DNA of 61,625 bases, filler included. It is 14 parts of 14 records of this genome, joined end to end, with 100 filler letters (N's around TTAATTAATTAA, not from the genome) between each part and the next. Parts side by side here need not be neighbours in the genome. Positions count along the whole stretch, not along the records: positions 54,195 to 58,310 come from SRR15195285_7760; positions 58,411 to 61,625 come from SRR15195285_7766; 12 more parts are not named here. One strand, given 5' to 3'. The first letter of the stretch is position 1; each line of letters starts with the position of its first letter. Both the position numbers and the translations under genes were made by a program. Of the stretch, positions 146 to 61,625 are shown in pieces. The notes beneath the pieces were generated by a model. It made no database searches. It saw only the letters and a list, made by a program, of their open reading frames with translations, and was not told the origin of the DNA.

Positions 146-381
146 ATGCCGTATGATCCGGAGGAGGCGGTGATGGAGGGCTGGACCATTGAGTTGGACA
201 AGAAGCGAAACGAGCACTATTTTTGGCACGAGGAAACCGAGACTAGCTCGTGGACGCATCCAGTGACGGGCAAGTTTCCAGACGGGAGTGAGCCTGGACA
301 GCCAGAGGACACTGATGATGCTGAGAGCAGTACCGAGGAGGTGGTGATGAGCAGCGACGACACAGAGGGGGCAGTCCTTCC
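146..381 (+). CDS. WW-domain exon, probably the 5' exon of the chromo-SET gene
   Basis: Translates GWTIELDKKRNEHYFWHEETETSSWTHP (W...YFWH...WxxP) followed by an acidic tail. A GTGAGT donor lies at 382. The splice path to 899 was not resolved. Confidence 0.7.
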
Positions 382-898
382 GTGAGTACACCTTTCAGCT
401 AGATCTATGGCGTCCCATTTAGTCTGTGCTGTTGCCGCCGCCTTTCCAGTCTCTGTGGCCTCGAATCGCTGCAGTCAAAAGCTGCCTTTCGTTTTGGAGT
501 GGCTGGGGGATTGGCAGCAGCGAGCCGACGCCACACAGAGCTGAAGACGGATCTGGAGCTCTGTGTAGCCTCAATCCGCTGCCGGCAAGCTCCCAGTCGT
601 TTCGAAACGAAAGGTGGCCGTAGCTTCTTTTTGCGCACACCGTCTCACTCACTGCGATTTGACGCCGTGGCGATGACAGGGAGGGTGGCTCTCAGGCGGT
701 CAGCAGGACGGGATCTGAGAAGCGTGTGAGTCTGGCACTTGTCACCAGCCTTGCGTTCGCTCTTCCTGGCTGTGCTGTGTTACGTTACACTACGCTATTC
801 TGCCCAGTCTTCGACTCCACCTCTTCAGATAAGCATCGTGCAGCCAATGCTGTTCGATTGTGCTGTTGATTCTGTTGCCCCCCTGTCTCGTGAGGTAG

Positions 899-18313: not shown

Positions 18314-18342
18314 CACCGGGCATAAGGCCCTTATGCCCGGTG
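18314..18342. repeat. Dispersed palindrome CACCGGGCATAAGG(C)CCTTATGCCCGGTG
   Basis: Related copies lie at 23543-23566, 37441-37464 and, as a half-site, 13282-13300. Confidence 0.85.
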
Positions 18343-18625
18343 TGAGTGGGATACCTGTACAAAATATTATGTGGGCGAACAATCACTTGTGAAGTGTTAG
18401 CGGTTGCGTCAAGGGCAACCACCATTTGATACCCCGGGCGGGCAACCGCACTTCGCCGTTGCACATCATCAGAACATCGCACCCCGTCGCACCAGGAATG
18501 AGGCCTCCGTGCTTGATCTGACGTCGTAGCTCAGCTTCAGCGGTCGCCATAACGAGTCGTTGTCGTTGCTCGGCTTCAACACACGTCCCTCTGATGGGCA
18601 GCTGAGGCCGGCAGCTGAGGTGCCG

Positions 18626-20212
18626 ATGGCTGACGCTGCTGCCGCCGAGCGGTCAGCGAAGCAGCGCGAGGCCGCGGCGACGGAGGAGGCGAAGAATGCG
18701 AAGAAAGAGGCGAAGCGCGAGGCTGCGCTGGCCGAGGAGGAGCGGCAGCGAGAGATTCAGGCGCAGTTGAGGCAGCTCGCAGAGGAGGAGGCTGCTGCGG
18801 CGGCGGCAGAGACGGCAGCGAAAGCAGAGGCCCTCCGACAGAAGACGCTCGACGCGCAGCCATTCAACTTGAGCATCGCAAAGCGGAAACGACTCGGTGG
18901 CGAACAGCGCCCATGCATCGGCATCGCGTCGCAGATTGTTGTGCGATCGCGTCCGCAGGACGGGAAGGAGTACGACGACCCTTCTGGGTGCCGCTTAGTG
19001 CCCTTCGACGTGTCAGCGGTGGCCGAATACCTTGGATTTCCGCTGGACCAGTGGCCTGGCCTTGCCGCGGTGGCAAAACTGGCGCTGCTTGAGAAGCTTC
19101 CGGAGGGCGACACGACCGTCAGGCTGAGCGGCGACGGCGAGCTCGGTGTGGTGCTCGACAAGTCCAGCGCACCGCCGTGCAAGATTAGCGCCGTGAAGGC
19201 CGGCAGCCTGGCAGAACAGGCTGGCCTACAGCCGGGCTGGCCAGTGGTTGCGGTCAACGGAAGAGGGGTGGAGTCTAAGGAGCACCCGGAAGTCAGCGCT
19301 GCACTGGAGGGTGTGGGTGTTGTTCGGCCGCTAACGGTGACCGTTCGACGCGGTGGTTGGAAAGAAGTCGACCCCCAAAGCCAGGCGAAGCTTCCCGGGT
19401 GGCAATCTGATGCTGATGGGGCCGCGGTAGCGGCATCAGGCGCGTTCGGCTCCAAGCTGGTGTACTGGCACCAGCACACTGGCAAGGTTCTGCTGCAGCA
19501 CCCACGTGATGCGTTCTACAGATACCTGTTGAAGGTCCTGCTGGAGAAGAATGAGTGCCCATTCGAGCCATCAATCATGCAGTTCAACGTAACTGACTCG
19601 GTGGAAATTGAGTCGAGCTTCTTCTTCGAGTTCGCCACCAACAAGACGATGGTGCTTGTGGACGTGCTCGCCGAGGCCGACGCCTCGACGCTCACCACAA
19701 AGGACGGCGTGGTCAAGGCAAACAACGTCATTAACGACGCTTGGACGCAAGCGCTGGTTGAGCAGCTGACACCAGAGGTGCAGCGTGCAGCTGGTCAAGT
19801 GATCTGGAGAGGATACGCTTACTGGCGATCACGTCAAAAGTGGGTGTTCCTTGCTCCACTAACGCGAATTCGCCGGAACATCCTAATCCGTAGGCTCCAG
19901 CTAGCTGTGCGACGTCGCTGGTTGCGTCTGGACCTGAGGGCGTGGGAAGATAGGCGGCTGCGGAAGCACTATTACCGGATCTGGTGGCAGCAAGCGATAA
20001 AGAGTGAGACATTTGCGCACTCGCTGCACAAGGTTCTTGCAACCAAGTACGTGGCCAAAACGGCAGCAAAAGCACGGAGCCCGGTCGAGATAGGCGACCT
20101 CCGGCTGGACAAAGAGGGGCAGCGGCTGATGGACACTATGCGCGCCACCCTAATGCGAATGGAGCAACTCCTGGTGTTAGAGGAGGACACATCAATCGGT
20201 TCCGTCGGCTAG
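18626..20212 (+). CDS. Coiled-coil protein with CEP164-like WW region, PDZ domain and IQ-like motifs
   Basis: EK/EA-rich N-terminus; AEYLG..L...PGL..VAKLALLEKLPEG; PDZ GELGVVL...ISAVKAGSLAEQAGLQPGWPVVAVNG; GWKE...YWHQHTGKVLLQHPRDAFYR; IQ-like RLQLAVRR. Confidence 0.7.
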   Translation: MADAAAAERSAKQREAAATEEAKNAKKEAKREAALAEEERQREIQAQLRQLAEEEAAAAAAETAAKAEALRQKTLDAQPFNLSIAKRKRLGGEQRPCIGIASQIVVRSRPQDGKEYDDPSGCRLVPFDVSAVAEYLGFPLDQWPGLAAVAKLALLEKLPEGDTTVRLSGDGELGVVLDKSSAPPCKISAVKAGSLAEQAGLQPGWPVVAVNGRGVESKEHPEVSAALEGVGVVRPLTVTVRRGGWKEVDPQSQAKLPGWQSDADGAAVAASGAFGSKLVYWHQHTGKVLLQHPRDAFYRYLLKVLLEKNECPFEPSIMQFNVTDSVEIESSFFFEFATNKTMVLVDVLAEADASTLTTKDGVVKANNVINDAWTQALVEQLTPEVQRAAGQVIWRGYAYWRSRQKWVFLAPLTRIRRNILIRRLQLAVRRRWLRLDLRAWEDRRLRKHYYRIWWQQAIKSETFAHSLHKVLATKYVAKTAAKARSPVEIGDLRLDKEGQRLMDTMRATLMRMEQLLVLEEDTSIGSVG

Positions 20213-21169
20213 GATGGTGGTGCCACACACGCTTATGCCTTGCGCATAATTATGACAACTAAGTATATGAGCAAGCGCCTTCCTTGTGGACCCCCGATAT
20301 ATCGGGATTCCGACACACAGGGTACCGCGACTACAAGGTTTGAATTCTCAGCGAATCGCTGGCGCTCCTATACAACAGGGCATCAGATAAGGCCTTGCAG
20401 AGGCGCTGAAAGCAATTGCGTTGCTCGTACTTTGCTGAATAAACAGCCACGAGAAATTGATGATGAACAAACACTCTCTGAGAAGAGAGAGATATACGGA
20501 GTTTCAATATAGTCACCGTTGTTAATCTCTCCCCGCCGAGAGAGTACGCATCCGTCGTGGATCCGGTGCTGTCCTGTGGCCGCCCCAGGTGCAAATACCT
20601 AGACGTAGAAGCTTCTGATGGACTTCTAGTGCCCTATATTTCTCTTTGTCCGAGGAGCGAGGAGTTTCGTCTCCGTACACGGTGACTTTGGTAAGCGAAT
20701 CCAACCCGGAACCACAACCAGGCTACTGGCAAGGGTCAGGCTGCTATGGTACTCAGTTAGTATGTAAATTTGTATGGTGGGGAGGTGCAAAACCGATCTC
20801 ACGAACCAGAGGCAGAGCTCCGTTTGGAGATCGGAAAACTGGAATTTCCATGGGCGCGGGATTTCCATCCAGCAAGCACACCAACGCTGCTATGGTACAC
20901 AATACAATGTAAATTTGAGTGGGTATAATACGCCCAGAAATTAGGTACCGGTACCCCGGGAAGTGCATGAAAAATACTGCTAGCTTCGGATTCTGCAGGG
21001 GATATACTATTATATGCATGATAGCTGTGCGCGCGCGCGCGGGCGGGCGGCGCGTGCGTGCGCGCCCATGGCATGCCTGCATGCCGGCCGGCGCGCCGCG
21101 GGGTGGCGGGATTGCTGCACCTGCGTGGTGTTCGTCGTGCGTGAGATACGTATAGCTTGACGCCCACCG

Positions 21170-23437
21170 ATGCTCTTGCTGGCGCTGCTCGTGGCTGTGG
21201 GTTCTACATGTGGCACTGCGTCGACTTCGAGCAGTGCGGGTGGACATGGGGTGTTTCAGCACAGGCAGCTGGCTAGCGACAGTGCTGTCCCACCGGTCTG
21301 GCCTGCTGCGCCGCAGCCGACCCCTTGGTACGACTACCCACTACCGCCTGGTTTCCCGGCCGACGTGGAGGCGTTTGCCACGACGTTGCCCACGGCGAGA
21401 CCTCGCCTGTGGGTGCTAGCGAGTGAGGGCGAGACACTCGGCGATGTCAGGCGCAGGCTGAATGTCACAATCCAACGAACGCCGAAGCTGGCTGCAATGG
21501 TCGACGACCTAAGGCTTTCTGCACAGCGGCTTGCCTGGTGCCACCTCCACGCCGCCGCGCACAACTGCACCAAGCTGCTGCCGACGCTTCACGATACACG
21601 CGGCGTCAATCAGGGCTCGATCACGCAAGACCGTATCGGCGCCCTGGCATGGACCGCTGTACTCGACCCTGGCGCGTCGTTCACAGCGGATCTACCACGG
21701 AGTGTCTACGTCGCCCGGGCCTTTGCCGACCTCCAAGCTGCCTGTAGCTTGAAGGGCTGGGTGGACGTGATGATCCCACACCCGACAAGTCAGTGCATTG
21801 ACAGCGGTGGCATCATGTCTGGTGTTGCCTTGGGCTACGACCTCTTCTACGGAGACTTCACCCCTGCACAGCGCCAGCTGATCCGGGACTCGATCCTGCG
21901 CCTCGGTGTGAAACTCTACGCTGAATTTTTTGACTCGACGCGGGGTGCAGCCAATCTGACGCGGCAGTGTGGCACAAACTATACCTTTGCCGTTGGACAG
22001 GGCTTGCAGAACGCCAGCGATGGCAGCTTCAACTGTTTCGCCAATATCGTGGATCACAACTTCAATCCCAACTGCAACGCTGGACCGATTCTCGCAGCCC
22101 TCGCAGTGGGTACCGATGGCAACCAAAGCTACACTGCGGCAATCTACCAGATGCTTCAGGACGCAACCAGGAGTATCGCGAAGGGGCTGCTGTCGTACGG
22201 GCCAGACGGTGCGTGGGAAGAGGGGCCAGGCTACTGGCAGTACGCGACAAGCAACGTAGCTCAGTCGCTAGACGGGCTGCGTGCGGCGTTGGGCGTGTGG
22301 CCTCGAGTGGTTGGCCTCAACGAGACCGGCCTGTGGTCACTGTACAACGCGGGCCCAACCCTACGGCCATTCGGATTCGGCGACGCAGAGGACAGCCAGC
22401 TGATGAGTCGGATGCCTTATGGGTGGCTAGCAAATGGCTTGCACAAACCGGACCAGACTGTGGAATGGTGGGACACAGCGCTAGCCGATCGTGGCGTGGG
22501 CGGTGGCCTGTCAAACCACAACGTGCTTGGTATCGTTCGACATAACTCGAGTAAGGGCAACGACGTCTCACCCGGACAGGCAGGCCTGGCACTGGCGAGA
22601 CATTTCCGGCGAAATGAACACATTTCGATGCGCAGCTCTTGGAGCGATCCACACGCTACTTGGTTCGCGATGAAAGGACGCGTGCCGTGGAGTACAGCTT
22701 CCGACCCAGGACATCCACACGACGATCTTGGTGAATTCGTGTTCGAGATGTGTGAGGAACGATGGGCTACTGATCTCGGGGCGGAGGGCTACAGCGTGGC
22801 AGAGTACTTCGATCTGCAGCTGCAGCGCTGGGCGATCTATCGCGCTTCTTGGGCGGGGCACAACGTGCTTACACTGCGCCAGCAGTCTGCTTCGGCAGCT
22901 CAACCACTTCCTTCTGCAGCTCTAATGAAGAATCTCACGGCTTCAGCAGCTTTTTTCGATCTGAGGCTAACAGAAGGCACCGCTGATAGGGACGGTGTCG
23001 GTGGCAGTCTAAATCTGACGGATGTCTACAACGGGCACGCAGAGGTCACGCGCAAGGTTCGCCTGCTCGGTCGAGGACTAACACTCACCGACACAGTAGC
23101 ACCGCGGCTGAGTGCTGAGGCGCGCTGGACGATGCATGTATGTGTTGCATCTTGTGGCAGCCACAGCCACGGACGGTTTCCAGTGACCAACCGCACGATC
23201 ACCATTCTCGGCTCGACTGCGACTATCCGGAGTACCGGTGGGGCAAGCGTCGTTCTGCATCTCAACGTCAGCGGATGCGCTGCATCTTGGGCCGTGGAAT
23301 CCGCTACTCCACCACTGATCCCAGCAGGGCAAAAGCTAAACGAACAATACAAGAAGTTAGTAGCCAGCTGCCACGTACAAGCGGGGCAGCAATTGAACAT
23401 GAGGATACCAATCACGGGTAGCTGTCCCGCAAATTGA
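21170..23437 (+). CDS. Heparinase II/III-like polysaccharide lyase, secreted
   Basis: Signal peptide MLLLALLVAVG; HNFNPNCNAG, YGPDGAWEEGPGYWQY, SMRSSW, HPHDDLGEFVF, RWATDLG and GHNVLT. Intronless. Confidence 0.82.
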   Translation: MLLLALLVAVGSTCGTASTSSSAGGHGVFQHRQLASDSAVPPVWPAAPQPTPWYDYPLPPGFPADVEAFATTLPTARPRLWVLASEGETLGDVRRRLNVTIQRTPKLAAMVDDLRLSAQRLAWCHLHAAAHNCTKLLPTLHDTRGVNQGSITQDRIGALAWTAVLDPGASFTADLPRSVYVARAFADLQAACSLKGWVDVMIPHPTSQCIDSGGIMSGVALGYDLFYGDFTPAQRQLIRDSILRLGVKLYAEFFDSTRGAANLTRQCGTNYTFAVGQGLQNASDGSFNCFANIVDHNFNPNCNAGPILAALAVGTDGNQSYTAAIYQMLQDATRSIAKGLLSYGPDGAWEEGPGYWQYATSNVAQSLDGLRAALGVWPRVVGLNETGLWSLYNAGPTLRPFGFGDAEDSQLMSRMPYGWLANGLHKPDQTVEWWDTALADRGVGGGLSNHNVLGIVRHNSSKGNDVSPGQAGLALARHFRRNEHISMRSSWSDPHATWFAMKGRVPWSTASDPGHPHDDLGEFVFEMCEERWATDLGAEGYSVAEYFDLQLQRWAIYRASWAGHNVLTLRQQSASAAQPLPSAALMKNLTASAAFFDLRLTEGTADRDGVGGSLNLTDVYNGHAEVTRKVRLLGRGLTLTDTVAPRLSAEARWTMHVCVASCGSHSHGRFPVTNRTITILGSTATIRSTGGASVVLHLNVSGCAASWAVESATPPLIPAGQKLNEQYKKLVASCHVQAGQQLNMRIPITGSCPAN

Positions 23438-23542
23438 TCCTCGTGCATGCACCGTTTAACATTTCTAGAGTTCTACCCACGTACGGACTACGCCAAGGTG
23501 TTTGCGTATCAGCCGTATCTTGTGTGATTGCTAGGACGATGA

Positions 23543-23566
23543 CACCGGGCATAAGGCCTTATGCCC
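23543..23566. repeat. Palindrome copy at contig end
   Basis: CACCGGGCATAAGGCCTTATGCCC, truncated by the spacer. Confidence 0.85.
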
Positions 23567-37440: not shown

Positions 37441-37523
37441 CAGGGCATACGGCCGTATGCCCTGTGTGTGTATTACGCAAGAGGCGTTACGGTATTACGC
37501 AAGAGGCGTTGCAGTATTACGCA
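37441..37523. repeat. Palindrome variant CAGGGCATACGGCCGTATGCCCTG followed by a 22-bp-period tandem repeat
   Basis: Perfect 24-bp palindrome at 37441-37464, then GTATTACGCAAGAGGCGTT in about 2.5 copies. Confidence 0.85.
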
Positions 37524-41423: not shown

Positions 41424-44400
41424 ATGTCGGGAGAGGACGGGGACGGGGCCAGTCGGCTCGAGGAGTTGCCGGAAGAGGAGCAGCCGGACACTGGCGAGGT
41501 GGCGGCAGAGAAGGCGACAGCAGAGGAGGAGGAGGAGCAGGGTGTGGGATGGGAGATCGATGGGAATGCGCTCGGCTGCCTCGCGGCGGAGAGTGGGTTT
41601 CGGCGGCAGTGCTACGCCCTGTTCCGCAACAACGTGTTCCAGGGGGTCGTGTTGGTGCTGATTGTGGCCAACACGGTGCTGCTTGCGCTGCAAGGGCCAC
41701 GGCACTCCCTCGGCGCGGGCTTCGACGACTTCGTGGCGTGGTTCGACATCGCCATCACGGGTGTATTCACCGTAGAATTGTGCGCTGGGATCTGCGCATT
41801 GGGGTTCGTCAAGGGTGAAAATGCGTATCTGCGCAACATGTGGAATGTGCTGGATTTCGTCGTAGTCATGGGCATCTACGTGTCGGCGCTCGCGATGCTG
41901 CTTTTTGGAGCGGATCTGGAGGCTGGGGCCGTGCGAGCGTTCCGCGCGCTGCGGCCGCTGCGCTCGCTGCGCTTGTTCAAGGGCCTGCAGGGCATTCTCG
42001 ATGCCTTATGGTTGACGCTGCCGTACGTGTCAACCGTCGTGGGGATGCTGTCCTTTTTCCTAATCATCTTCAGCACGATGGGTGTTGCACTTTTCGGTGG
42101 GACACTGTCACGCGCGTGCAGGCAGAGCACCGAGCTGTTCAGCACGCAGCCGTACCTGGCAGCAGCAGCGGGTAACATCAGCATGGTACCCACGGGCTGC
42201 CCGCCCACGATGGCCTGCGCGGCGATGGCCACCGACCCCCAGAACACATCGAAGATGGTCGCTTGGTCAGTTGACGGAGACGACATGTGCGCAGCAATTC
42301 CGTACGACCTGGACCCCACCCACTTAGACCGGACTTTCGAGACCAAGTATATAAGCTACGACAACGTGCTCTACTCGTTTCTGACGCTCATGGTAGTAAC
42401 CACGATGGACGAGTGGCCGCTAATCGCCCACCGAATGTGGCAGTCGGACGGCAACGTCGGATACGGCGCCTGGTGGTTCGTTGTCGTCGTGGTTCTGTTG
42501 GTGTCGCTACTCACGGTGAATCTATTCACTGCAGTCGTGAGCTATGGGTTCGGCAAGATGAGGAAAGAGCTGCACAAGAGCGCTTTTACCGGAGAGGAGG
42601 TATTCGGCAAAGGTCCTGTTGAAGAGCGGATCGGTCCAGGTGACGACAAAGAAACGTTTATGTCAGAGCGTCCGTTCCCTTTCGTTCCCGCGATCTCACC
42701 GGGTGCCTACGACCTGGTGCACTCGAATGCTTTTGAATATGCAATTCTGGGAGCGATCGTGGGCAACGCGATATGCATGGCATCAGAGTACCACGGCATG
42801 CCGCAGGGGCACAAGGATGCGCTGTTCTTCCTTGAGGTGGGCTTTTTGGTCATCTTTACGATCGAGATGCTGCTCAAATGGACAGGAATGGGCATGAACG
42901 CGTACTTTGCGGACAGGTTCAACTGCTTTGACTGCAGTCTGGTTGTGGTCGGGATAATGGGGTTCGTCGCAGACTTAGCCCTTGGAGGCTCCTCAAGCGG
43001 ACGGGTGGTGCGGATTCTGTTCCGGATGTTCCGTGTGGCCAGGCTGCTTCGCTTGGCGGGCAAGGAAAGCACTGTGGGCATTCTCCTGAAGACGATCTTT
43101 TCCAGCTGGTCAGCGATTGCGAATCTGCTCGTGTTCACTTCGTTCACATTGGTTGTCTTCGCCATCATCGGTATGCATACATTCGGCTACACCTGCCATG
43201 GTGGCGAGCTGTCGGATGCAGAGACGCCACGCACTAGCTTCGCTTCATTTTCCGACGCGATACTGGCGTGCTTTCAAGTCATGTCAGGGGAAGACTGGGC
43301 GCCTATTATGTACTACTACATGCACTGCTCCAGCCCAGTCGGCGCCTCGATATTTTTCATTAGCTTGACGGTGTCCACCGGGTTTGTACTTGTGTCCATG
43401 TTTGTCGCCGTCATCTTGGAGAACTTTGCATTAGCAGAAGAACAGAAAGCACGAGCGCAAGCTGAGAACCTCAAGTCAAAAGTAACCAAGAAAGTAGAAG
43501 ACGATAGCATGGAGGAGTTGCCACAGTGGCGGTGGAACTGTCGCGCTATTTCAGAGAGGAAGTGGTTCGAACGCATTGTATTGCTTATCATCATGGCAAG
43601 CAGTGTCGTCATGGCGCTCGAGTACCCAACCCAGCAGCAACTAACAACCGACCAGCAGGAGTGGCAGGCTACACTCGAGAACATTGGACTGTGCTTCTTC
43701 GCTGGGTTCTGCCTTGAAGCTGCCATAAAGTTGGCTGGTTACGGAATTGTGAAGTACTGGAGAGACCCGTGGAACCGTCTCGACTTTTTGGTAGTACTGA
43801 TGGGAGCAATTGACCTAGTGGTCTACGCTGTTAGCGGATCAAAGAGCAATGTTACGAACATCCTGCGCATGTTCAGAGTGCTGCGACCGCTGAGGCTTAT
43901 AAAACGCAATGAGGGCATGGTTGTGATCGTCAACGCACTGATCGGTTGCATCCCGATGGTCATCGGCGTCGTCGGCCTAGTAGCGTTGCTCTACATCGTG
44001 TTCGCCATCATTGGCATGCATATGTACATGGGCATGATGTTTGGTTGTGCTGGGCAGTCGGATACGAACGCAACTGGCGATCTCTCAATGGACTCATTGA
44101 GCAATTCAAGTGGTGACTTCGATATGAGCTCATTGAATGAAGTAGACTGTCTTCAGCGTGGTGGTGCTTGGGAGCACGTCGCATACTTCTCGTTCGATGA
44201 CATATTTAAGAGCTTTAAGACTCTGTTCATTGTTTCAACCACGGAGGGATGGGTTACTGTCATGGAGGCCGCCATGGACACCCCATCTGTGATGGGTGAT
44301 GCCCCGTCCAAGAACAACTCACAGCTAGGAGCCGCCATCTATTGCTGCACGTTCATTATCTTCGGGGCGTTCTTCTCAGCCAACCTGTTTGTTGGAATAC

Positions 44401-46109
44401 TTGTCTCCTTCTTCGGCCAGAGCAGTGGGAATGCATTATTGACCGAGGGGCAAAAGCAGTGGGTGCAGCTCAACATGCTGGCAATGCAGCTTGCTCCTGA
44501 CCCGATCATCCCGCCTGAGCACCCAGCCCGACGAGCATGCTACAACATAAGTGTATCTCACAAAACCGAGCTCTTCATAGGCGGCGCGATCATTGTGAAC
44601 ACCTTGATGCTTATGCTTGAAGCCTACCCCATGGACCAAGGCTTTGCGGACCTGATGGAAGTGTGTAATTTTGTCTTCCTGCTGATCTTCACGATCGAGA
44701 GTGCGATCAAGATGACTGGACTAGGTGTGAGGTCTTACTTTTCGGTATCGCCGTGGAATCGCCTGGATTTCACCATTGTGGCAATTTCATGGATCTCCAT
44801 GGCAGCTGAAGGGCTTTCTGTGTTTTCCGGCGGCCGTGCGCTGCGCGTCTTCCGGTTGCTGCTGCTACTCAAGAACACGGAGTCTTTACGAACACTCCTC
44901 CGGACACTAGTGCTCTCGCTTCCGCCGGCCATGAATATCACCCTCTTGCTGACGCTTGTGCTCTTCGTGTTTGGCATCATCGGCATGCAGCTCTTTGGTG
45001 GACTACCGCTTGGTAATCCGTTGGAAGACGCAATCAACACCTACGATAATTTTGACACACTTCCCGCCGCTATTCGCGTGCTCTTCCAGATCGCGACAGG
45101 TCAAGACTGGGTTTCCAAGGCGGAAGAGCTCGAGCAGAAGATGCTGGCGGCGGACTACGTGGGTCAATCGCTGGCTTTGCCTTACATGGTGGTATTCTAC
45201 ATCTCATCCGTATTCATTTTCATCAATCTCTTCATCGCGGTTTTGCTCGAGAACTTTGAGCTCAACTTCGACCCGGATGCTCTGGAGATTAAAACCGCAG
45301 ACATGGCCAAGTTTAAGGCCGCTTGGGAAGAGACCGTGGCCCCAGGCGAGATGCAGATGCCAATCAGATCTGTCAAGCGTATGATAGAGAAGTCTGATTT
45401 AGGTGTCCTCTCACAGGTGATGGACGACTCACAGTGGTGGCCGCACCTGCTTGCAAACATTGGCTGGGACACGGCGAAAGATCCTACCGACGAGGATGTA
45501 GTTGGCTTTCGTAAGCTGCTGCTCTCCCTGGCTTTGATGTTCGTTTCAATCGATGCTCTGCCGCTAGAGGAGCGGATTGCTGAGGCGCGACGGCTGACAG
45601 ATCGTGCAGAACGGACGGCCAGCCGCCTCATTCACGCCTGCATTGTGGCTAAGTTACATTTGAAACGCCCCGAGCAGTACTGTGATCCCGAGTTGCGTGC
45701 GAGGCACGCGAGCGACCCAGACTTCTTCAAGAAGTACCGGCACGCGGCGATATTCTGCAGGAACATGATGGTTGTACAGATAGTGGCTGTCAACAAAATC
45801 AGTGCAGAGCATGTAAGAAACAATGACGAGCATTTGTTGGAGCTCATGGCCCTTCAGGCAGAAGTGGTGCGTCCCTGTGTCCAGCAACTCACACCAGCCG
45901 CGTTTATCCTGCAACTAGAGTCCATCTGCGTGCTTCGCAGCGACTCACCACCAGCGCTGTCTATTAATTGATCGCAGGGGGCTGATGGTGGCGAGTCCAA
46001 CAGCAAATTGCCACCCGGCTCGACGGAGTCGGACGACGGAAGTTCCACCCGCTTCATGAATCCAATGGCAGACCCGGACTTGGACAACGAGGACATTGAA
46101 GCGGAGTGA
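41424..46109 (+). CDS. Four-domain voltage-gated cation (Cav/Nav-type) channel alpha subunit
   Basis: Four 6-TM repeats with WNxLDF motifs and S4 helices (e.g. RAFRALRPLRSLR). Pore loops TMDEW, SGEDW, TTEGW and TGQDW. Probable last intron 45867-45977, stop at 46107-46109. Confidence 0.95.
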
Positions 46110-50992: not shown

Positions 50993-51303
50993 ATCGCAAG
51001 CGACGGCGTGCAAGAGACTGATGCGCACACCTGGATGCGATGTACGGTACCATGCAACCGGCGCGCGCGTGGCGTTGACAAGCTAAGCTGCATAGACGGT
51101 AATAGATCTATGATATTTATTCATCACATATTACACATAGTATATATACGTTTATACGTAGGATAGATATACGCGCGCGCGCGCGCGCGATGCGAGGCCG
51201 GCCGCCGCCGTGGCCGCAGCGCAGGCAGCGCAACGAAGCGCAAGGCCGCAAGCGCCGGGTCGCCGGGGTCGCCGGGGTCGCTATACGCAATACAGGGCAC
51301 CGT

Positions 51304-52389
51304 ATGACGGCTGTACTGCTGTCGTGTGCTGCTGCCCTGGCGCTATATTCCGCCCCGAAGGCTCTAAACTACCACATCCGAATCATCGACTATCCGGCGC
51401 TGCCGCTACTGGACTACGAAGAAGGCAGCTCGGCGTGGCAGTTTGCGTACAACCCTGCGTTTCTGCCTGGCCAGAGCGCAGAGGGGTTGTTTGTTCGCGT
51501 ACAGAATGGTTCTAGCAGCCCACCGGGCTCTTGTGGCAAGCCGGGAACGTCGTCTTTCGTCTCTTTCGTGCCGATTGACGGTGGCAGCGCAAAAAGGCTT
51601 GGCGCACAAAAGATATTCTCGCCGGCCATGACAGACTTCGAGCAAACTGCAGAAGACCCCCGGATTATATATGACGCGCCGAACAAAACCTGGTATATGA
51701 CCTACACTGCAAATGGCATCATATCTGAAGGCTCCGTGCCGCCGATGAATCGTCACCAGGGCATTGCAACGTCTACAGACCCACTCGCACCGGGCAGCTG
51801 GAAGCGGCGGTGCACTGGCGCAGCCCCGTGTCTTCCACCTGGACTGAAGTCTGGGGCGATGCTGCAGCGCCTCGACCCACCGCATTACATGTTTGTGTAC
51901 GATCTAACCAAGACTTGCCCGACTAATCCTGGGAGTGTCTGCCGTCACACCGTTGTTGCCGAGTCGAACGACCTGCTCTCGTGGAGTCTCGCTAACGGGG
52001 ACAACGTATTGTTGCCACGGCGCCCGGGAATGTGGGACGCTGGGCTGATCGAACCAGGCCCACCGCCATTGCGCCTGAACACTGGCGACTATGTCTTCTT
52101 TTACAACGGAGCCACGCTTCCAAACGACCGGCAGTATCACGTCGGGTGGGCGATTTTGTCGCACGACAACCCGAGAACAGTGCTGCAACGCAGCGCAGAA
52201 CCTGTTTTATCTTGGACGGACAGGCCGTGGATGGTCGGCAACTCGTCGAAGTACCTGTGCTATACACCGAGTGTGGTATTTTGCAATGGTGCACGTGAGG
52301 TGAAGGGGCAAGAGAATACCTATCAGCTGTATTTTGGAGCAGCAGACGCGGTGGTGGGCAGCGCGACTGTGCAGTTGATGTGGGCCTAG
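51304..52389 (+). CDS. GH130-like five-bladed beta-propeller glycosidase, secreted
   Basis: Signal-like N-terminus; YNPA, EDPRI, YMTYTA, KSGAM, WDAGLIEPGPPPL, VVFCNG and YFGAAD. Confidence 0.82.
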   Translation: MTAVLLSCAAALALYSAPKALNYHIRIIDYPALPLLDYEEGSSAWQFAYNPAFLPGQSAEGLFVRVQNGSSSPPGSCGKPGTSSFVSFVPIDGGSAKRLGAQKIFSPAMTDFEQTAEDPRIIYDAPNKTWYMTYTANGIISEGSVPPMNRHQGIATSTDPLAPGSWKRRCTGAAPCLPPGLKSGAMLQRLDPPHYMFVYDLTKTCPTNPGSVCRHTVVAESNDLLSWSLANGDNVLLPRRPGMWDAGLIEPGPPPLRLNTGDYVFFYNGATLPNDRQYHVGWAILSHDNPRTVLQRSAEPVLSWTDRPWMVGNSSKYLCYTPSVVFCNGAREVKGQENTYQLYFGAADAVVGSATVQLMWA

Positions 52390-57899: not shown

Positions 57900-58439
57900 C
57901 GTCCGTCGTCAGCAGCGCCGCCCAGCACGCGTGCGTGACGATCGGTCGCCGATCGCGTGCCGTCGTCACATGCACGCGTGCGTCGAATAGATGCTTTTCC
58001 GGGTCTTGCGGATTCACAGTGAAATTGGTGTCGTTTTCACTCCGCGGAGTCTTGAATTGAGAATTCTGAGCCAGCAGCCTGTGAGAGTGACGCTGTCCGT
58101 GACTGGAGCAGCCTGTTCACGGGAGTGTGAGCTGTGTGACTCTGACTGCATGGAGCTCAGCCGGTGAGGGTGACGGCCGTTGGAATGCGTCTGGCGAAAA
58201 CGCGGGACGGCTCCGGTGTCTCGCACTAGTCGGCCATGGCGGACGATGGCATGCGGATGGCGGCGCAGCGAAGGGGCCGGCGCACCTCCGTGTCCGCCGA
58301 GGTCTTCAACNNNNNNNNNNNNNNNNNNNNNNNNNNNNNNNNNNNNNNNNNNNNTTAATTAATTAANNNNNNNNNNNNNNNNNNNNNNNNNNNNNNNNNN
58401 NNNNNNNNNNGCAAGAGCAAGAGCAAGAGCAAGAGCAAG

Positions 58440-60503
58440 ATGACCCTCGTGAGGCAGAACGCTGTCACCGGCGACATCGCCGAGACCACCGAGACCACCC
58501 AGGGCACCGAGCCGATGGCATCGTCGTGGCCGAGCGCAGAGGCTATGCTCGACGATGTGCTGAAACTCGCCGACAAGCTGGAGGCCTGCGAGAAGACCAA
58601 GAACGAGCGGAGGCAGCAGTTCAGGCGAGTGGCCGAGCACGTCGGCGACGACCTGGACGAGATCACCACACTGACGGTGCTCTCCGCCGAGAGTGTCAAT
58701 GACTATTGTGAATCATGCGCACCGCAGAGCGTCGACACCTACTGCAAGATGGCCCTCGCTTTCCACCGGCTCGCCGCCTCCGCGCAAGGCCACACCGACC
58801 TGCCCGTGCCCGTCTGCCGCGAGATGGCCGCGTTGGAGTCGATGATGGCCGACTTCGAGCACGAGAGGCGCAACAAGCAGAAGCCGCCGCCGCCGCTGAT
58901 GTCCTTCCTCAAGCCCGCACATGCCATGTTTGAGAAGCTGAGCACCAAGCACACCGACGACATCGCCTACGTCGACCTTGCGCTGGCCGTCTGGTTCATG
59001 TTTACCGTGTTTGGCATTGCCACTCGAACCCGCACCCTGCTCACTGCACGCTGGGGCGACAACTTTCGCCGCGAGGAGAACGGCGACTGGCACATCCAGC
59101 TCGGCGACCCGAACGGAGGCACCAAGCACAAGTTCCCACTGTCCGTGAAGCTAAGCGAGCTTAGCAACCTCTGCAACGCCGGCCTCCTCTACCCAGACCT
59201 CGCCACGACGGCCCTGGACTGGCTCTACAGCCGCACCAAGGGCGACAAGGACGGTCGCCTTGTTTTCAGCAGGAGCGAGACGAAAGACTCTCCTTTCGGC
59301 AAGGCGGTCTTTGGCACCTACATGCGCGAGCAGTACAAGAGTGCCAAGGATATGGACTGCGGAGCTCTCAGGAAGCGCATCGAGATCATGGCTAATCAGC
59401 TGCTCAAGGCGGAGAAGATTACCGCCGCCGACCGTGCCCTCGCTTCGACTCTTCTGCAGCATAAAGCCGAGACTGCAGCACTGGACTACCTGCCCGCTGG
59501 CGACACTGAGCTCGCCGAGTCTGAGCCCGAGCCAACGCCCGAATTGGAGCAAATTTCGGAGCCAGAGCCAACTGAGAGCACTGAGACCAGCCCTCCGCAG
59601 AGCATCGTTGTGCACAACGGCGATGTACTCGAGATCGCGCACGAATACGAAGGGCTCTCCACCATGTGCGTAACGCTGAAGGGAGAGCATCTGCTGCTGA
59701 TTCTCGTGCCGAAGCCACACAATTCAAAGTATGACTGGACGTTCGCTCCGCACCGAGCGGGATTCAAGTCAAATATCGCCGAGATGAGCGAGTATGGCAC
59801 ATTCGATCTCTGCATTTCGCCGTCTCCCGACCTGTCATCTCCCGATCCGATGCAGCTCCTGGTCGGCGTTCACGAAGGTGGCTTTGCCACGCTGCTGCCA
59901 CGCGATGCAGACGCGTACCAGCTGCGCAAAGTCGGGAACATCGGCCCAACGCCGGAAGGATCGCCACTGGGCAGTCCTGAGGCACGGGTGGCGGCAGTCG
60001 AAGCCCGACTGGAGGCCATTATCACCGCACTGCAGCACATGAACAAGGCGGGATTGCACACGAACGAAGTCCTGGATTACATCCGCCAGAAGGTTGACAG
60101 CCAGCCGGCGCCACTGCAGCCGACCACTCAGTCCTCTGACTGGCTGAAGGAGGTGATCGAGGCCGCGGAGGACTTCAAGTACGACAATTGCCGCACCACG
60201 GGTGACGTCGTTCGCTTCAAACTGGTGCTTGCCCGGGCCGCACTCAACCAGCCACGGGTCATGTCTATCGGTGAGAATGCGGCGTGGGCAAAGTACAATG
60301 ATCTGATCCACTACATCCAGACGGCCGAAGACAGCCACGACGCCGAGACCATTTCGGAGAGTGAGAGTGAGAGCGAGGACGAAGACGAGGAGACAGTGCG
60401 TGCCGCCATCGGCGCTGTTCTGAAGGCCATCTCTAAGCCCCGCGCTCGCAAGAACCAGGCACCGCAGGACCGCGCTCACAAGAAGGGACGCCACTCGCAG
60501 TAG
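58440..60503 (+). CDS. Tyrosine-recombinase-domain protein (PLV/virophage- or Crypton-like), possibly 5'-partial
   Basis: Ordered catalytic-type residues: FGIATR (R, 59025), GTKHK (K), CGALRK (R), LASTLLQHKAETAALDY (H...Y, 59460-59489). Intronless with high GC3. The frame stays open upstream through (GCAAGA)5. Confidence 0.65.
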   Translation: MTLVRQNAVTGDIAETTETTQGTEPMASSWPSAEAMLDDVLKLADKLEACEKTKNERRQQFRRVAEHVGDDLDEITTLTVLSAESVNDYCESCAPQSVDTYCKMALAFHRLAASAQGHTDLPVPVCREMAALESMMADFEHERRNKQKPPPPLMSFLKPAHAMFEKLSTKHTDDIAYVDLALAVWFMFTVFGIATRTRTLLTARWGDNFRREENGDWHIQLGDPNGGTKHKFPLSVKLSELSNLCNAGLLYPDLATTALDWLYSRTKGDKDGRLVFSRSETKDSPFGKAVFGTYMREQYKSAKDMDCGALRKRIEIMANQLLKAEKITAADRALASTLLQHKAETAALDYLPAGDTELAESEPEPTPELEQISEPEPTESTETSPPQSIVVHNGDVLEIAHEYEGLSTMCVTLKGEHLLLILVPKPHNSKYDWTFAPHRAGFKSNIAEMSEYGTFDLCISPSPDLSSPDPMQLLVGVHEGGFATLLPRDADAYQLRKVGNIGPTPEGSPLGSPEARVAAVEARLEAIITALQHMNKAGLHTNEVLDYIRQKVDSQPAPLQPTTQSSDWLKEVIEAAEDFKYDNCRTTGDVVRFKLVLARAALNQPRVMSIGENAAWAKYNDLIHYIQTAEDSHDAETISESESESEDEDEETVRAAIGAVLKAISKPRARKNQAPQDRAHKKGRHSQ

Positions 60504-60762
60504 AGCAGTCTATGTACCGTCGGCCACGGCGCCTGAATAAATACAACCCACGTGATAACAAAGTGCAATGCCCGGGCTCTCCTGCAACTGCGAGACTATG
60601 CAGGCCACATGCGAATTGGGCAGCGGTAGCAGCGAGACGCTGGCAATGCTAGTTCTGTGTGCACTGAGCGTAGTGGCGGTGGGCAAGCTGTTCGCAGCGT
60701 ATGAGCTGGATGAGTACTCAGATGACGAGGACGCTCCACCAAGCGGTATGTTTACGTAAACA

Positions 60763-61524
60763 TTACAGGTCAGTGTCACACGTCGGCTTGTCGCCACGGC
60801 ACCGAAAGCAGCCGGACTGGCCGCCTCGGTTGATCTTGACAAAGTTCTGGTCCATCATCTTGTGCACGATGCCACTCTTACACTCGGGGACAAAGTGCAG
60901 CACGTGCTGCGACGCGCTGTTGATGCGCGGCAGGTCGTCAAAGTGCTTGCACTGCTGGCTCGTGATCGGGCGAGCCTGGCCTTCGGGCACGCAGTAGACA
61001 CAGCGATAGAGCCCGTCGCACCAGATCACCTGGATGTCCTTGTGCCTCGTACGCGCTTGGCGAACCTCGAGCTCCGCCACGACTTGCGGCGGCGGGTCCT
61101 TGGCCGTGCGGGCGTGGATGCGCAGGAAGCCGGAGACGCCAGAGTGTGGCGCCACGCGATTCGGGTTGCGGCCGTCCTTGTAGATCTGGACGTACTCGCC
61201 GTCGCGCCGGACGCAGTCGCACGTCCAGCACCAGCCCGTTCCACCCGCCTTGATCTGGTTGTCCGTCTTGTAGTCCAGGTTCCGAGCCTCCATCGTGTCC
61301 CAGTGGAAGAACCCCGGCTCGAACGTGTCAGAAACGCGCTTCGGCACGAGGTGAAGGTCGGGGTTCTTGCAAGGCACATTGCGTGCCCTAGAGTAGCCGC
61401 GACCATCCTTGCCCAGCGCGTCGGGGCAGATGGGGCACCGATAGAAGCCGTCACACCAGGGCTGGTGCGTCGGCTTCTGCTTCTTGCACGGGGGGCACAC
61501 CACGTCGCCCTCCAGCGCCGCCAT
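60763..61524 (-). CDS. Cys-rich, probably Zn-binding protein with duplicated WCDGxYRCxxC motif
   Basis: ATG at 61524; CPPC, WCDGFYRCPIC, WCWTCDC, WCDGLYRCVYC and CFRC. Strong GC3 bias supports coding. Confidence 0.7.
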   Translation of the reverse strand: MAALEGDVVCPPCKKQKPTHQPWCDGFYRCPICPDALGKDGRGYSRARNVPCKNPDLHLVPKRVSDTFEPGFFHWDTMEARNLDYKTDNQIKAGGTGWCWTCDCVRRDGEYVQIYKDGRNPNRVAPHSGVSGFLRIHARTAKDPPPQVVAELEVRQARTRHKDIQVIWCDGLYRCVYCVPEGQARPITSQQCKHFDDLPRINSASQHVLHFVPECKSGIVHKMMDQNFVKINRGGQSGCFRCRGDKPTCDTDL

Positions 61525-61600
61525 GGTGAGCTTGTGGGCGCAGACTCGGGTGAGAGTGAATATCCGTGAATGTCCCATTGAATGACATACAATTGTATGT

Positions 61601-61623
61601 GAATAACTGAATAACTGAATAAC
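61601..61623 (+). repeat. 8-bp tandem repeat (GAATAACT) x about 3 in an AT-rich upstream region
   Basis: GAATAACTGAATAACTGAATAAC at the window end. Confidence 0.7.
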
Positions 61624-61625
61624 CA

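Follow-up and report, generated by a model that had tools for sequence, protein, structure and literature searches.

A compact three-gene unit encoding a highly divergent tyrosine recombinase, probably a Crypton-like selfish element of Picozoa

We analyzed a stretch of 61,625 nucleotides (the window) consisting of 14 contigs joined by N44-TTAATTAATTAA-N44 spacers. The last contig (58411-61625; 3215 bp, GC 0.607) carries three genes: ORF1, the small ORF3 and, convergent to ORF1, ORF2 (Table 1). Host proteins encoded in the window are at least 90% identical to proteins of Picozoa COSAG02 and SAG11. The contig terminates in microsatellites, (GCAAGA)5 at one end and (GAATAACT)3 at the other; since several other contigs of the window end in the same manner, these termini mark where the assembly broke off and do not delimit the element. 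The two ends share no overlap. In L002, a related locus, a CA-rich microsatellite lies immediately 5′ of its own ORF1 ATG.

Table 1 Features of the terminal contig, in window coordinates
Feature	Coordinates	Strand	Description
ORF1 5′ leader	58411..58439	+	(GCAAGA)5 microsatellite up to ATG; contig broken at this point
ORF1, 687 aa	58440..60503	+	Tyrosine recombinase, then variable C-terminal half
ORF1 residues ~30-170, helical N-terminal core-binding-type domain	58527..58949	+	pLDDT 87-95
ORF1 residues ~175-355, catalytic domain	58962..59504	+	Fold and conserved residues
ORF1 R196 (ATR)	59025-59027	+	Catalytic domain
ORF1 K229 (GTKH)	59124-59126	+	Catalytic domain
ORF1 G308 (GALR, G308-x-x-R311; place of His)	59361-59363	+	Catalytic domain
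ORF1 R311 (GALR)	59370-59372	+	Catalytic domain
ORF1 H341 (LLQH)	59460-59462	+	Catalytic domain
ORF1 Y350 (LDY)	59487-59489	+	Catalytic domain
ORF1 residues 389-500, beta-rich middle domain	59604..59939	+	Strands E389-E500, pLDDT 62-80
ORF1 residues 513-687	59976..60500	+	Helical region, acidic SE/DE run, basic C-terminal tail (KPRARK...KKGR)
ORF3, 63 aa	60568..60759	+	CxC..C motif; single hydrophobic helix; acidic tail with PPSGMFT at its end
Perfect 16-bp palindrome ATGTTTACGTAAACAT	60748..60763	.	Spans ORF3 stop, touches ORF2 stop
ORF2, 253 aa from conserved ATG	60763..61524	-	Cys/His-rich; internally duplicated WCDG[FL][YF]RC-x2-C module
Non-coding region 5′ of ORF2	61557..61625	.	GC 0.43; contig broken at this point
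Perfect 16-bp palindrome ACATACAATTGTATGT	61585-61600	.	Inside non-coding region 5′ of ORF2

The original prediction for this contig had described intronless, high-GC3 ORFs with no recognisable host domain. GC3 was indeed high, at 0.78 in ORF1 and 0.85 in ORF2 compared with 0.51–0.71 in 20 host ORFs of at least 250 aa on the 13 other contigs, and the element genes of L001, an independent metagenome contig, likewise lay above the host ORFs of the window. The ORFs are uninterrupted, but this does not set them apart: other contigs of the window carry uninterrupted ORFs of 750–1515 aa encoding ordinary eukaryotic proteins. Tetranucleotide usage, part of a suggested comparison of k-mers and coverage with the host, did not make the contig an outlier in the window (mean r 0.75 versus 0.70–0.82).

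The predicted 687-aa ORF was found with its R...K...LR...H...Y residues where claimed, and it proved to be an orphan at the sequence level. ORF1 had no match in Pfam, NCBIfam, PHROG or PDB sequences; in Pfam, nothing appeared at E ≤ 1 for ORF1 or any of 18 aligned homologues, none of which matched PF00589, PF16795, PF01028, PF12012 or PF12835, the models of the DNA_BRE_C superfamily (PMC8371274). Profile comparisons with Cre (E 0.53) and lambda Int (E 0.31) were not significant, and hhalign pieces covering the Cre K201 region and lambda Int H333/Y342 were short and not significant by themselves. Searching 1.84 billion representatives with ORF1 returned 45 matches in total.

The AlphaFold (AF2) model of ORF1 has pLDDT 87–97 across residues 30–350, and Foldseek matched it to 30 PDB chains at E ≤ 0.001 (3e-5 to 1e-3), with XerA, Cre/Tre and lambda Int at the head of the list (330–366 columns). 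In VIA-align, the best 41 of the 50 matches listed were all tyrosine-recombinase or topoisomerase IB folds (Z 14.2–10.1; model residues 23–363), including XerA (Z 14.2), XerH (Z 14.1; 292 residues, rmsd 4.8), Cre (Z 12.8–13.7) and the integrases of lambda and Tn1549 (Z 11–11.6). Both recombinase domains superpose on these five, and the N-terminal domain aligns with those of Cre, XerH and lambda Int, the model ranges beginning at residues 23–50. The two-domain tyrosine-recombinase fold, whose absence would have refuted the prediction, was thus recovered by both comparisons.

We then counted residue conservation in an 86-sequence MAFFT alignment of ORF1 homologues. R196 (45/47), K229 (40/44), R311 (44/45), H341 (38/40) and Y350 (38/40) were conserved, so the prediction passed the second refutation test set for it as well, and the glycine noted in place of the HxxR histidine is G308, a position occupied in 44 sequences by G (22), S (14), E (5), D, V or A (1 each) and never by histidine (0/44). 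Together with the fold, this conservation makes the motif more than chance. Without the HxxR histidine, and with T199 occupying the acidic site at position +3 from the first arginine, the active site reads as a five-residue and not a seven-residue set. Type IB topoisomerases have R-K-R-H-Y and no HxxR histidine in their active site (see Cheng et al. 1998, cited in PMC8371274); the predicted site R196-K229-R311-H341-Y350 corresponds to this set rather than to the seven residues of Cre. T199 stands in place of Cre E176. G308 replaces Cre H289 and, since the model ranges end at Cre 325–327, Y350 lies opposite Cre Y324 (H289 and Y324 numbered as in PMC13465315).

Set against the superfamily, ORF1 has the two-domain fold and the nucleophilic tyrosine with Arg-I, Lys, Arg-II and His/Trp-II, and lacks the HxxR histidine and any match to the Pfam models. 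It shares with Cre of phage P1, XerH, XerA, lambda Int and Tn1549 Int the two-domain C-shaped architecture (Z 11–14, 250–290 residues) and the order Arg, Lys, Arg, His, Tyr, but differs in sequence (9–17% identity, no significant profile match) and in its ~330 extra C-terminal residues. Because the hallmark R-H-R-Y histidine is missing across the family, recombinase activity is not assured; we regard ORF1 as a very divergent tyrosine recombinase that is apparently active, its catalysis being inferred.

The same residues could mean that ORF1 works not as a recombinase but as a topoisomerase IB-like relaxase, or as a hairpin-forming resolvase acting on palindromes of the element, of which there are two perfect 16-bp examples. 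The catalytic domain matches human and Leishmania topoisomerase I at Z 11.7–11.8 over 160–180 residues, with the lowest rmsd (3.1 Å). Yet ORF1 has an N-terminal domain of the core-binding type found in recombinases, full-length recombinases score higher (Z 13–14 over 250–290 residues), and no telomere resolvase was among the 50 VIA-align matches listed. ORF1 also lies in a compact three-gene unit instead of a housekeeping context, and a relaxase alone would leave the conservation of that unit unexplained. We therefore consider this function very improbable.

Beyond the recombinase domains, residues 389–500 of ORF1 belong to no recognised family and form a variable cassette, replaced by another domain in L001 and in the homologue P0063 and missing in P0091. 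The basic C-terminal tail is conserved and may serve as a nuclear localisation signal. ORF3, a third conserved ORF absent from the original prediction, has a counterpart at 1766–1966 of L001, where 36/63 residues are identical, differences at codon positions 1/2/3 number 17/14/37 and the other frames are closed; it matched no family and is a small membrane-type protein, a conserved partner of ORF1. Started at the more upstream ATG at 61578, ORF2 would have 271 aa; the N-terminal extension gained in this way is not conserved in 25 aligned sequences. No significant Pfam family was found for it either, and its AF2 model (pLDDT 31) was unusable; this second conserved partner, rich in cysteine, probably binds zinc.

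At least two palindromes with 8-nt arms occurred in only 7 of 2000 shuffles of the contig; ATGTTTACGTAAACAT is imperfect in L001. Six direct TGAAT repeats surround ACATACAATTGTATGT, a density of 6 in 65 bp compared with 0.81 per kb in the window; outside this cluster, no 75-bp stretch holds more than 2. We consider the TGAAT-palindrome region a candidate cis site, whether recombination site, origin or promoter. No long inverted repeat was found on the contig.

The unit recurs outside the window. L001 carries ORF1, ORF3 and ORF2 arranged and oriented as in the window, with ~57%, ~57% and ~65% identity, and a 1109-nt contig in run X2 bridges 60470-61342. COSAG06 has near-identical ORF1 pieces on two contigs, and variant element contigs coexist within single metagenome runs, observations that bear on whether one genome holds several dispersed copies, as is typical of Cryptons. 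Twelve studies contributed 13 metagenome runs (seawater, aquatic or estuary) that contain near-identical DNA, the possible source run left out. Among the 40 variant sites listed of 177, ORF1 accounts for 18 synonymous and 13 non-synonymous changes, of which 8 and 3 lie within residues 30–355, and all three indels listed were 3 nt long. The three-gene unit is under purifying selection. Relatives were found only in Picozoa single-cell assemblies and seawater metagenomes.

Such conservation would also suit a lineage-specific host gene cluster, in which Picozoa have domesticated a recombinase for some cellular task, for example programmed rearrangement or DNA topology, and two host genes are its neighbours. 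Homologues in three different Picozoa assemblies, the NLS-like tail, the unexceptional tetranucleotide usage and contigs from a metatranscriptome run covering parts of ORF1 are all compatible with this. So are the coverage labels in the assembly names, which are not above those of the host (1.8, 2.4 and 2.5 for element contigs versus 6.0 and 7.6 for two host contigs). Several observations argue otherwise. The COSAG02 homologue of ORF1 is only 42% identical in a host whose ordinary proteins are at least 90% identical, which means that divergent lineages coexist in close hosts; frameshifted, truncated or cassette-swapped relatives occur (P0052, P0003, P0004, P0091); and GC3 exceeds that of all 20 host ORFs examined. 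According to Kojima and Jurka (PMC3212892), domesticated Crypton recombinases have lost their catalytic residues, whereas ORF1 keeps five. With the junction described next, which is unlike a plain host locus, these points make a host gene cluster doubtful.

In L001, a 105-bp stretch past the ORF2 start aligns, in the same orientation, with the 75 bp that precede the ORF1 ATG of L002 (Smith-Waterman score 44, reached in 0/300 shuffles, whose maximum was 29). The ORF2-upstream DNA of L001 thereby runs into the ORF1 leader, ending 4 nt before the expected ATG, for a unit of ~3.14 kb. Such a direct-orientation match implies that the unit is circular, copied in tandem or bounded by terminal direct repeats. 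The window contig has the same geometry, with 29 bp ahead of the ORF1 ATG at one end and 101 bp ahead of the ORF2 ATG at the other; closure of the unit on itself appears to occur at about 3.1–3.3 kb. No joint between the two ends of the window contig was seen in four runs.

This geometry raises the possibility of an autonomous small nuclear episome, or a head-to-tail tandem array, of ~3.1–4 kb, resembling the yeast 2-micron plasmid. The host would replicate it, ORF1 would resolve multimers or control copy number, and ORF2 and ORF3 would serve maintenance. The longest contigs of close clusters are all ≤4.3 kb, and the same 597-aa homologue lies on two separate contigs of 3992 and 3993 bp, whereas same-lineage host genes occupy contigs up to 11.9 kb; the iteron-like TGAAT array flanking a palindrome and the un-host-like GC3 also fit. 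Like the 2-micron plasmid with Flp and its partition genes, the unit would be a selfish DNA of the nucleus, small in size, that combines one tyrosine recombinase with a few small partners; in a relative it may close on itself (the L001/L002 wrap-around similarity). Against this, one COSAG06 copy is the sixth gene of a 6378-bp contig, starting at its end after five other predicted genes, so that copy lies inside longer DNA, and the contig contributes just one full ORF1 to the cluster. Upstream of the shared leader, L002 has 733 bp of other DNA lacking ORF2, a poor fit to a simple circle for some copies. There is no overlap between the ends of the window contig, no gene for replication was recognised, the long inverted repeats of the 2-micron plasmid were not found, and ORF1 matches Flp weakly in structure (Z 5.5). 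The coverage labels leave high copy number unsupported, though amplification bias makes them weak evidence, and 90% protein-cluster sizes (31 for ORF2 and 1 for ORF1 versus 1–16 for host genes) are only loosely larger for the element. A free, self-maintaining nuclear circle of ~3.1–4 kb in Picozoa, whether 2-micron-like plasmid or minimal virus-like replicon, is rather unlikely; it would combine a topoisomerase IB-type recombinase, two partner proteins and the TGAAT-palindrome region as origin or recombination site, and be widespread at sea.

The original prediction had left open a mobile element or an endogenous virus fragment. For the latter, ORF1 would be the integrase of a larger polinton-like virus, virophage or giant-virus insert. 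The best structural matches in a viral library do include uncharacterised giant algal virus proteins, from Pyramimonas orientalis virus (E 3e-6), Aureococcus anophagefferens virus, Heterosigma akashiwo virus and Tetraselmis virus, and more distant homologues lie on 8.9- and 17.7-kb contigs. However, scans of IMG/VR gave no relatives of ORF1, ORF2 or three distant homologues, no viral protein is among the 45 sequence matches of ORF1, and the unit in L001 appears to close on itself at ~3.1 kb. In agreement with the prediction, no RT, capsid, packaging ATPase or polB was present in the unit, on the 3.2-kb contig or on L001. The viral half of the proposal is therefore unsupported and quite improbable, while a divergent tyrosine-recombinase element is the best reading.

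Among eukaryotic elements using tyrosine recombinases, polinton-like viruses and virophages differ from the unit in their capsid and packaging ATPase, and DIRS/Ngaro/VIPER retroelements in their RT/RNase H, which neither the contig nor L001 has. Crypton DNA transposons (CryptonF/S/A/I) are reportedly the subject of Goodwin et al. in 2003. Cryptons are eukaryotic tyrosine-recombinase elements of a few kb without RT, with a proposed cycle of excision to a circle and reintegration; Kojima and Jurka 2011 (PMC3212892) give them short (4–6 bp) terminal direct repeats and no TIRs. The unit resembles them in its size and lack of RT, in having no long terminal inverted repeats, in a conserved non-catalytic C-terminal region and, as in some CryptonS elements, in carrying a second protein gene. 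None of its three ORFs has an RT, DDE or HUH domain, leaving the tyrosine recombinase as sole mobility enzyme. It departs from them in its Picozoa host phylum and in its Cys-rich and small membrane-type partners, where Cryptons have a GCR1_C domain or C48 peptidase. Membership of the Cryptons proper failed on sequence, ORF1 resembling no recombinase family in Pfam, and on the R-H-R-Y catalytic tetrad (PMC3212892), whose histidine is present in 0/44 family members.

On balance, we favour the view that the contig is a nearly complete copy of an RT-less, Crypton-like selfish DNA element of ~3.1–4 kb with three genes, resident in Picozoa. Its mobility, the identity of its recombination site and a circular intermediate are inferred. 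By analogy with Cryptons and prokaryotic integrases, ORF1 would enter the nucleus and bind sites, either repeated or palindromic, within the short stretch that separates the starts of ORF2 and ORF1, where Y350 would cleave the DNA; the element would leave as a circle and insert again at another place.

Picozoa are abundant uncultured marine protists. Our full-text literature search on Picozoa with recombinases or mobile elements found no paper describing such an element, and neither 'transpos' nor 'recombinase' occurs in the text of the main Picozoa single-cell genomics paper. For this group, the element most likely represents selfish mobile DNA of a new kind. The family would add a sequence-orphan lineage to the eukaryotic tyrosine-recombinase elements (Crypton, DIRS/Ngaro, Starship), it shows that the 'hallmark' HxxR histidine can be missing from a whole conserved family, and it supplies two conserved partner proteins of unknown fold. 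Should the unit prove to be a free circle, it could provide a group that lacks a genetic system with a naturally occurring vector backbone and a means of site-specific recombination.

The window comprises 14 short contigs of 3.2-5.8 kb each, with N44-TTAATTAATTAA-N44 spacers between them; the last of these, the studied contig, is 3215 bp long with a GC content of 0.607. It encodes a tyrosine recombinase (ORF1), a Cys-rich convergent partner (ORF2) and, additional to these two, a short membrane-type protein (ORF3), whose stop codon lies 3 nt away from that of ORF2. Alignment of 25 ORF2 relatives showed that the stretch ahead of the conserved ORF2 start codon is an unconserved leader. The contig opens with (GCAAGA)5, immediately 5′ of the ORF1 start codon, and has (GAATAACT)3 at its other end. 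Because several other window contigs also end in microsatellites, we regard these termini as assembly breaks and rejected a telomere reading. Neither tRNA genes nor Rfam families were found on the studied contig or on two related metagenome loci, L001 and L002. Elsewhere, near-identical perfect palindromes, GGGCATAAGGCCTTATGCCC (20 bp) and CAGGGCATACGGCCGTATGCCCTG (24 bp), occur at the start or end of two contigs, one of which (18314-23566) carries the motif at both ends; they may represent an assembly-breaking palindromic repeat family or amplification chimeras.

Features of the studied contig, of other window contigs and of locus L002, with the conservation of the ORF1 catalytic residues
Feature	Position	Strand	Details
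ORF1	58440-60503	+	687 aa
ORF1 conserved N-terminus	58440-58475	+	T-L-x-R-Q-N-x-V
ORF1 R196			conserved in 45/47
ORF1 K229			conserved in 40/44
ORF1 R311			conserved in 44/45
ORF1 H341			conserved in 38/40
ORF1 Y350			conserved in 38/40
ORF3	60568-60759	+	63 aa, between ORF1 and ORF2
ORF2	60763-61578	-	271 aa, convergent to ORF1; conserved start ATG at 61524 (MAALEGD...)
Non-coding end	61557-61625		GC 0.43, TGAAT repeats
Terminal palindromes	18314-18346, 23541-23566, 37441-37464		other window contigs
Channel ORF	41424-45968		1515 aa, uninterrupted
GH43/DUF377-named ORF	51190-52386		399 aa
L002 upstream segment	1-733		upstream of ORF1 leader
L002 upstream ORF	309-611	-	100 aa
L002 tandem duplication	251-292		21 bp

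At the sequence level, ORF1 is an orphan. Searches of Pfam, PHROGs and NCBIfam with ORF1, ORF2 and ORF3 returned chance-level rows only, and neither ORF1 by itself nor an ORF1-family profile found anything relevant among PDB sequences. HMMER recovered only 45 ORF1 relatives from 1.84 billion representative proteins, none of them annotated, and a profile search of a 5.8-billion-protein collection added no annotated relative or named family. The AlphaFold2 model, built on a 49-sequence alignment, reached pLDDT 87-97 over residues 30-350. Foldseek matched it to 30 PDB chains at E<=0.001, with XerA, Cre/Tre and lambda Int on top over 330-366 columns, and in VIA-align rows 1-41 of the best 50 listed were recombinase or topoisomerase IB folds throughout. 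The highest Z scores were those of XerA (14.2), XerH (14.1; 292 residues, rmsd 4.8) and Cre (12.8-13.7), followed by lambda Int and Tn1549 Int (11-11.6); Flp was a weak match (Z 5.5). These matches span model residues 23-363 and so cover both the helical core-binding and the catalytic domains, bearing out the catalytic fold expected from the sequence. Since the Cre alignments stop at Cre 325-327 opposite model residues 351-353, Y350 is placed on Cre Y324. Profile-profile comparison by hhalign was not significant against Cre (E 0.53) or lambda Int (E 0.31); its short aligned pieces fell at the expected places, immediately ahead of Cre K201 and at the LLGH...Y box of lambda Int, and serve as a positional cross-check only. 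As judged from the predicted fold, ORF1 genuinely belongs to the tyrosine recombinase superfamily, is conserved, and can be recognised by structure only.

We then counted catalytic residues across 86 aligned family sequences, including at each site only those sequences that cover it. The sequences departing from R196, K229, R311, H341 or Y350 were short or visibly misaligned fragments. At the position of the HxxR histidine the family carries G (22), S (14), E (5), D (1), V (1) or A (1), and His in 0 of 44. The original prediction had read R...K...R...H...Y with G in place of the HxxR histidine, and it was right in every particular, the pattern being conserved in homologues. This R-K-R-H-Y set is the active-site set of type IB topoisomerases. 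In Cre the residue three positions after the first Arg is acidic; the equivalent T199 is never acidic across the aligned block. VIA-align matched only the catalytic domain to topoisomerase I (Z 11.7-11.8, rmsd 3.1). A purely topoisomerase- or resolvase-type role of ORF1 appears very improbable. PMC3212892 and PMC13465315 treat the classical R-H-R-Y tetrad as the hallmark, and from this tetrad the ORF1 family departs by lacking the HxxR histidine. ORF1 is probably enzymatically active.

Past the recombinase, ORF1 continues through an acidic linker, a beta-rich domain (residues 389-500, pLDDT 62-80), helices, an acidic SE/DE run and a basic tail. The tail, KPRARK...KKGR, is kept as K/R clusters even in distant relatives and would fit a nuclear localisation signal. 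L001 and the relative P0063 have a different domain in place of the beta-rich one; this replacement module (~870-1130 in L001, and the C-terminal half of P0063) shows a conserved …TVTPYEW…DGRDWC…F.L FAAHF pattern. Another relative, P0091, lacks residues ~389-515, and P0008 and P0010 lack the helices that follow the beta-rich domain. From these comparisons, the C-terminal half appears to be built from exchangeable cassettes. Neither family searches, Pfam included, nor the ESM Atlas (residues 385-687) assigned it a family or fold, and weak helical matches in VIA-align (Z 4.6-5.9) were discounted as meaningless. At the opposite end of ORF1, the extreme N-terminus is conserved even at 25-35% identity, and a T/E-rich repeat of variable sequence comes after it. 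The conserved stretch could act as a peptide for targeting or regulation.

Among the partners, ORF2 is Cys/His-rich, and a WCDG[FL][YF]RC-x2-C...C...H module occurs in it twice, with most of the module residues invariant among the 25 aligned sequences. It belongs to a 90% cluster of 31 members, with a second cluster of 52 at 66% identity. Family searches (Pfam, PHROGs and NCBIfam) and the ESM Atlas gave no match, and its AF2 model was unusable (mean pLDDT 31); our guess from the motif is that ORF2 binds zinc and possibly DNA. ORF3 combines a CxC..C motif, a single hydrophobic helix and an acidic tail. It shares 36 of 63 residues with its L001 counterpart, the differences falling 17/14/37 at codon positions 1/2/3, and in L001 the other frames are closed over this region.

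A metagenome scan recovered the two related loci. L001 (2892 bp) encodes ORF1 (from residue 83), ORF3 and ORF2 in the same order and orientation as the window, with protein identities of ~57%, ~57% and ~65%, respectively, and ~70% identity in DNA. L002 (1192 bp) contains the first 130 codons of an ORF1 of the same kind and 800 bp upstream. The part of this upstream DNA that precedes the ORF1 leader has no ORF2 and no recognisable family, carries a minus-strand ORF and a tandem duplication, and may represent either host flank or additional sequence belonging to a larger variant. DNA near-identical to the studied contig turned up in 13 metagenome runs (seawater, aquatic or estuary) belonging to 12 studies, the possible source run excluded, and in small shares in five metatranscriptome runs. 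We compared four runs, whose contigs are short, along the studied contig in 30 bins. Contigs of runs X2 and X3 covered 26 and 25 bins, mostly at 95-99% identity, and one run contig of 1109 nt bridges the ORF1 end, ORF3 and ORF2. The very deep first bin was set aside as microsatellite noise, and bins without cover were given no weight. Each of the three listed indels spans 3 nt. Among the 40 of 177 variant sites listed, ORF1 had 18 synonymous and 13 non-synonymous changes (8 and 3 in the recombinase domain), and ORF2 had 3 and 5. Contigs from an RNA library fell on ORF1 only; this is no proof of transcription, and the lack of RNA contigs over ORF2 was given no weight. By homology, ORF1, ORF3 and ORF2 constitute a compact conserved unit of Picozoa assemblies and seawater.

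Long ORFs on the remaining window contigs encode ordinary eukaryotic proteins, including SET/Pre-SET, TNFR-type repeat, four-domain ion channel, PDZ and SPRY proteins. Seven of ten checked host ORFs were present in the protein collection, in 90% clusters that include proteins of the Picozoa single-cell assemblies SAG11 and COSAG02, and relatives of ORF1 are named Picozoa COSAG06 and COSAG02; on these names we read the host as picozoan. The 399-aa host ORF belongs to the largest 90% cluster among those tested (16 members), of which some carry the name "predicted GH43/DUF377 family glycosyl hydrolase" and one sits on an 11.9-kb contig; the gene may be of bacterial type, or its contig a contaminant. 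The studied contig had been singled out as intronless with high GC3. The latter held, at 0.78 for ORF1 and 0.85 for ORF2 versus 0.51-0.71 for 20 ORFs of at least 250 aa on other window contigs, and L001 is likewise high (0.78 and 0.83). The former is no distinguishing mark, since uninterrupted long ORFs are common to all window contigs. One of them codes for a voltage-gated-type cation channel with four repeats (Ion_trans in four stretches, E 3e-187). Intron-poor genes or long exons seem usual in this genome.

The ends of the related loci bear on topology. In L001, the 105 bp past the ORF2 start are similar to the 75 bp directly ahead of the L002 ORF1 ATG, in the same orientation (local score 44; shuffle mean 18.2, maximum 29; reached by 0 of 300 shuffles). 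Common to both are two short palindromes, CGCACGTGCG and AATCGCGATT, and, after them, a CA-rich run. L001 ends 4 nt short of the expected ATG position. DNA upstream of ORF2 in L001 thus enters the ORF1 leader, implying a circle or head-to-tail array of ~3.14 kb, or terminal direct repeats of at least 65 bp. The studied contig has the same geometry, with 29 bp ahead of the ORF1 ATG and 101 bp ahead of the ORF2 ATG. Within its non-coding end, a perfect 16-bp palindrome is surrounded by six direct TGAAT repeats, a TGAAT density unmatched in the rest of the 61-kb window. Another perfect 16-bp palindrome runs across the stop codons of ORF3 and ORF2; two palindromes of this kind arose by chance in 7 of 2000 shuffles. 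The TGAAT array and both palindromes are candidate cis sites. An element boundary past 61540, based on differing continuations in runs X3 and X12, was dropped because close ORF2 relatives resemble one another to graded degrees in their N-terminal extensions, ahead of the ATG. That the unit is a free, 2-micron-like episome is a minority reading, which we consider unlikely. Three findings speak against a simple free circle: in L002 the shared leader is preceded by 733 bp that lack ORF2, a COSAG06 copy is the sixth predicted gene of a 6378-bp contig, starting at its end, and no joint of the studied contig's two ends was seen in the short contigs of four runs.

Relatives were absent from IMG/VR, GTDB species genomes and a plasmid collection (the last by tblastn). 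That the contig is a piece of a larger virus is accordingly hard to credit: among the structural neighbours of ORF1 in a viral library are uncharacterised proteins of giant algal viruses, which share the fold only, but viral hallmark genes and IMG/VR relatives are both missing. Of the original prediction of a mobile element or endogenous virus fragment, the mobile part stands as the best reading and the viral part falls away. We found no published account of such an element in Picozoa, either pairing Picozoa with tyrosine recombinase or, among the matches listed, in the broader mobile-element literature; the text of PMC8599508 contains neither "transpos" nor "recombinase".

Compared with host contigs, the studied contig is ordinary in tetranucleotide usage, being no outlier in the window, and coverage labels in assembly names are lower for element contigs (1.8, 2.4 and 2.5) than for two host contigs (6.0 and 7.6). 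Cluster sizes at 90% are loosely larger for the element (31 for ORF2 versus 1-16 for host genes). With labels below the host and clusters only loosely larger, a high copy number is unsupported. Host proteins of the window are at least 90% identical to COSAG02 and SAG11 proteins, whereas the COSAG02 homologue of ORF1 is only 42% identical, and COSAG06 carries pieces of one ORF1 subfamily on two contigs. Several relatives are broken or rearranged: P0052 is a doubly frameshifted fragment, P0003 a truncated form continuing into unrelated sequence, P0004 a 5′-truncated form with another C-terminus, and P0091 an internal deletion form; misassembly could account for some of them. In close clusters, contigs never exceed 4.3 kb (one homologue occurs on two, of 3992 and 3993 bp), and host genes of the lineage lie on contigs of up to 11.9 kb. 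Contigs with relatives also include COSAG06 ones of 6378 and 3711 bp and a COSAG02 one of 4278 bp, and distant homologues lie on contigs of 8.9 and 17.7 kb. A domesticated host gene cluster is an improbable account, and the identity gap, the two COSAG06 contigs, the broken relatives and the short contigs favour what would be a selfish, multi-copy family. On the R-H-R-Y tetrad and on sequence the ORF1 family falls outside the Cryptons, but it would resemble them in its way of working, and a Crypton-like, RT-less mobile element cycling through a circular form is, at slightly better than even chances, the best reading of this picozoan unit.
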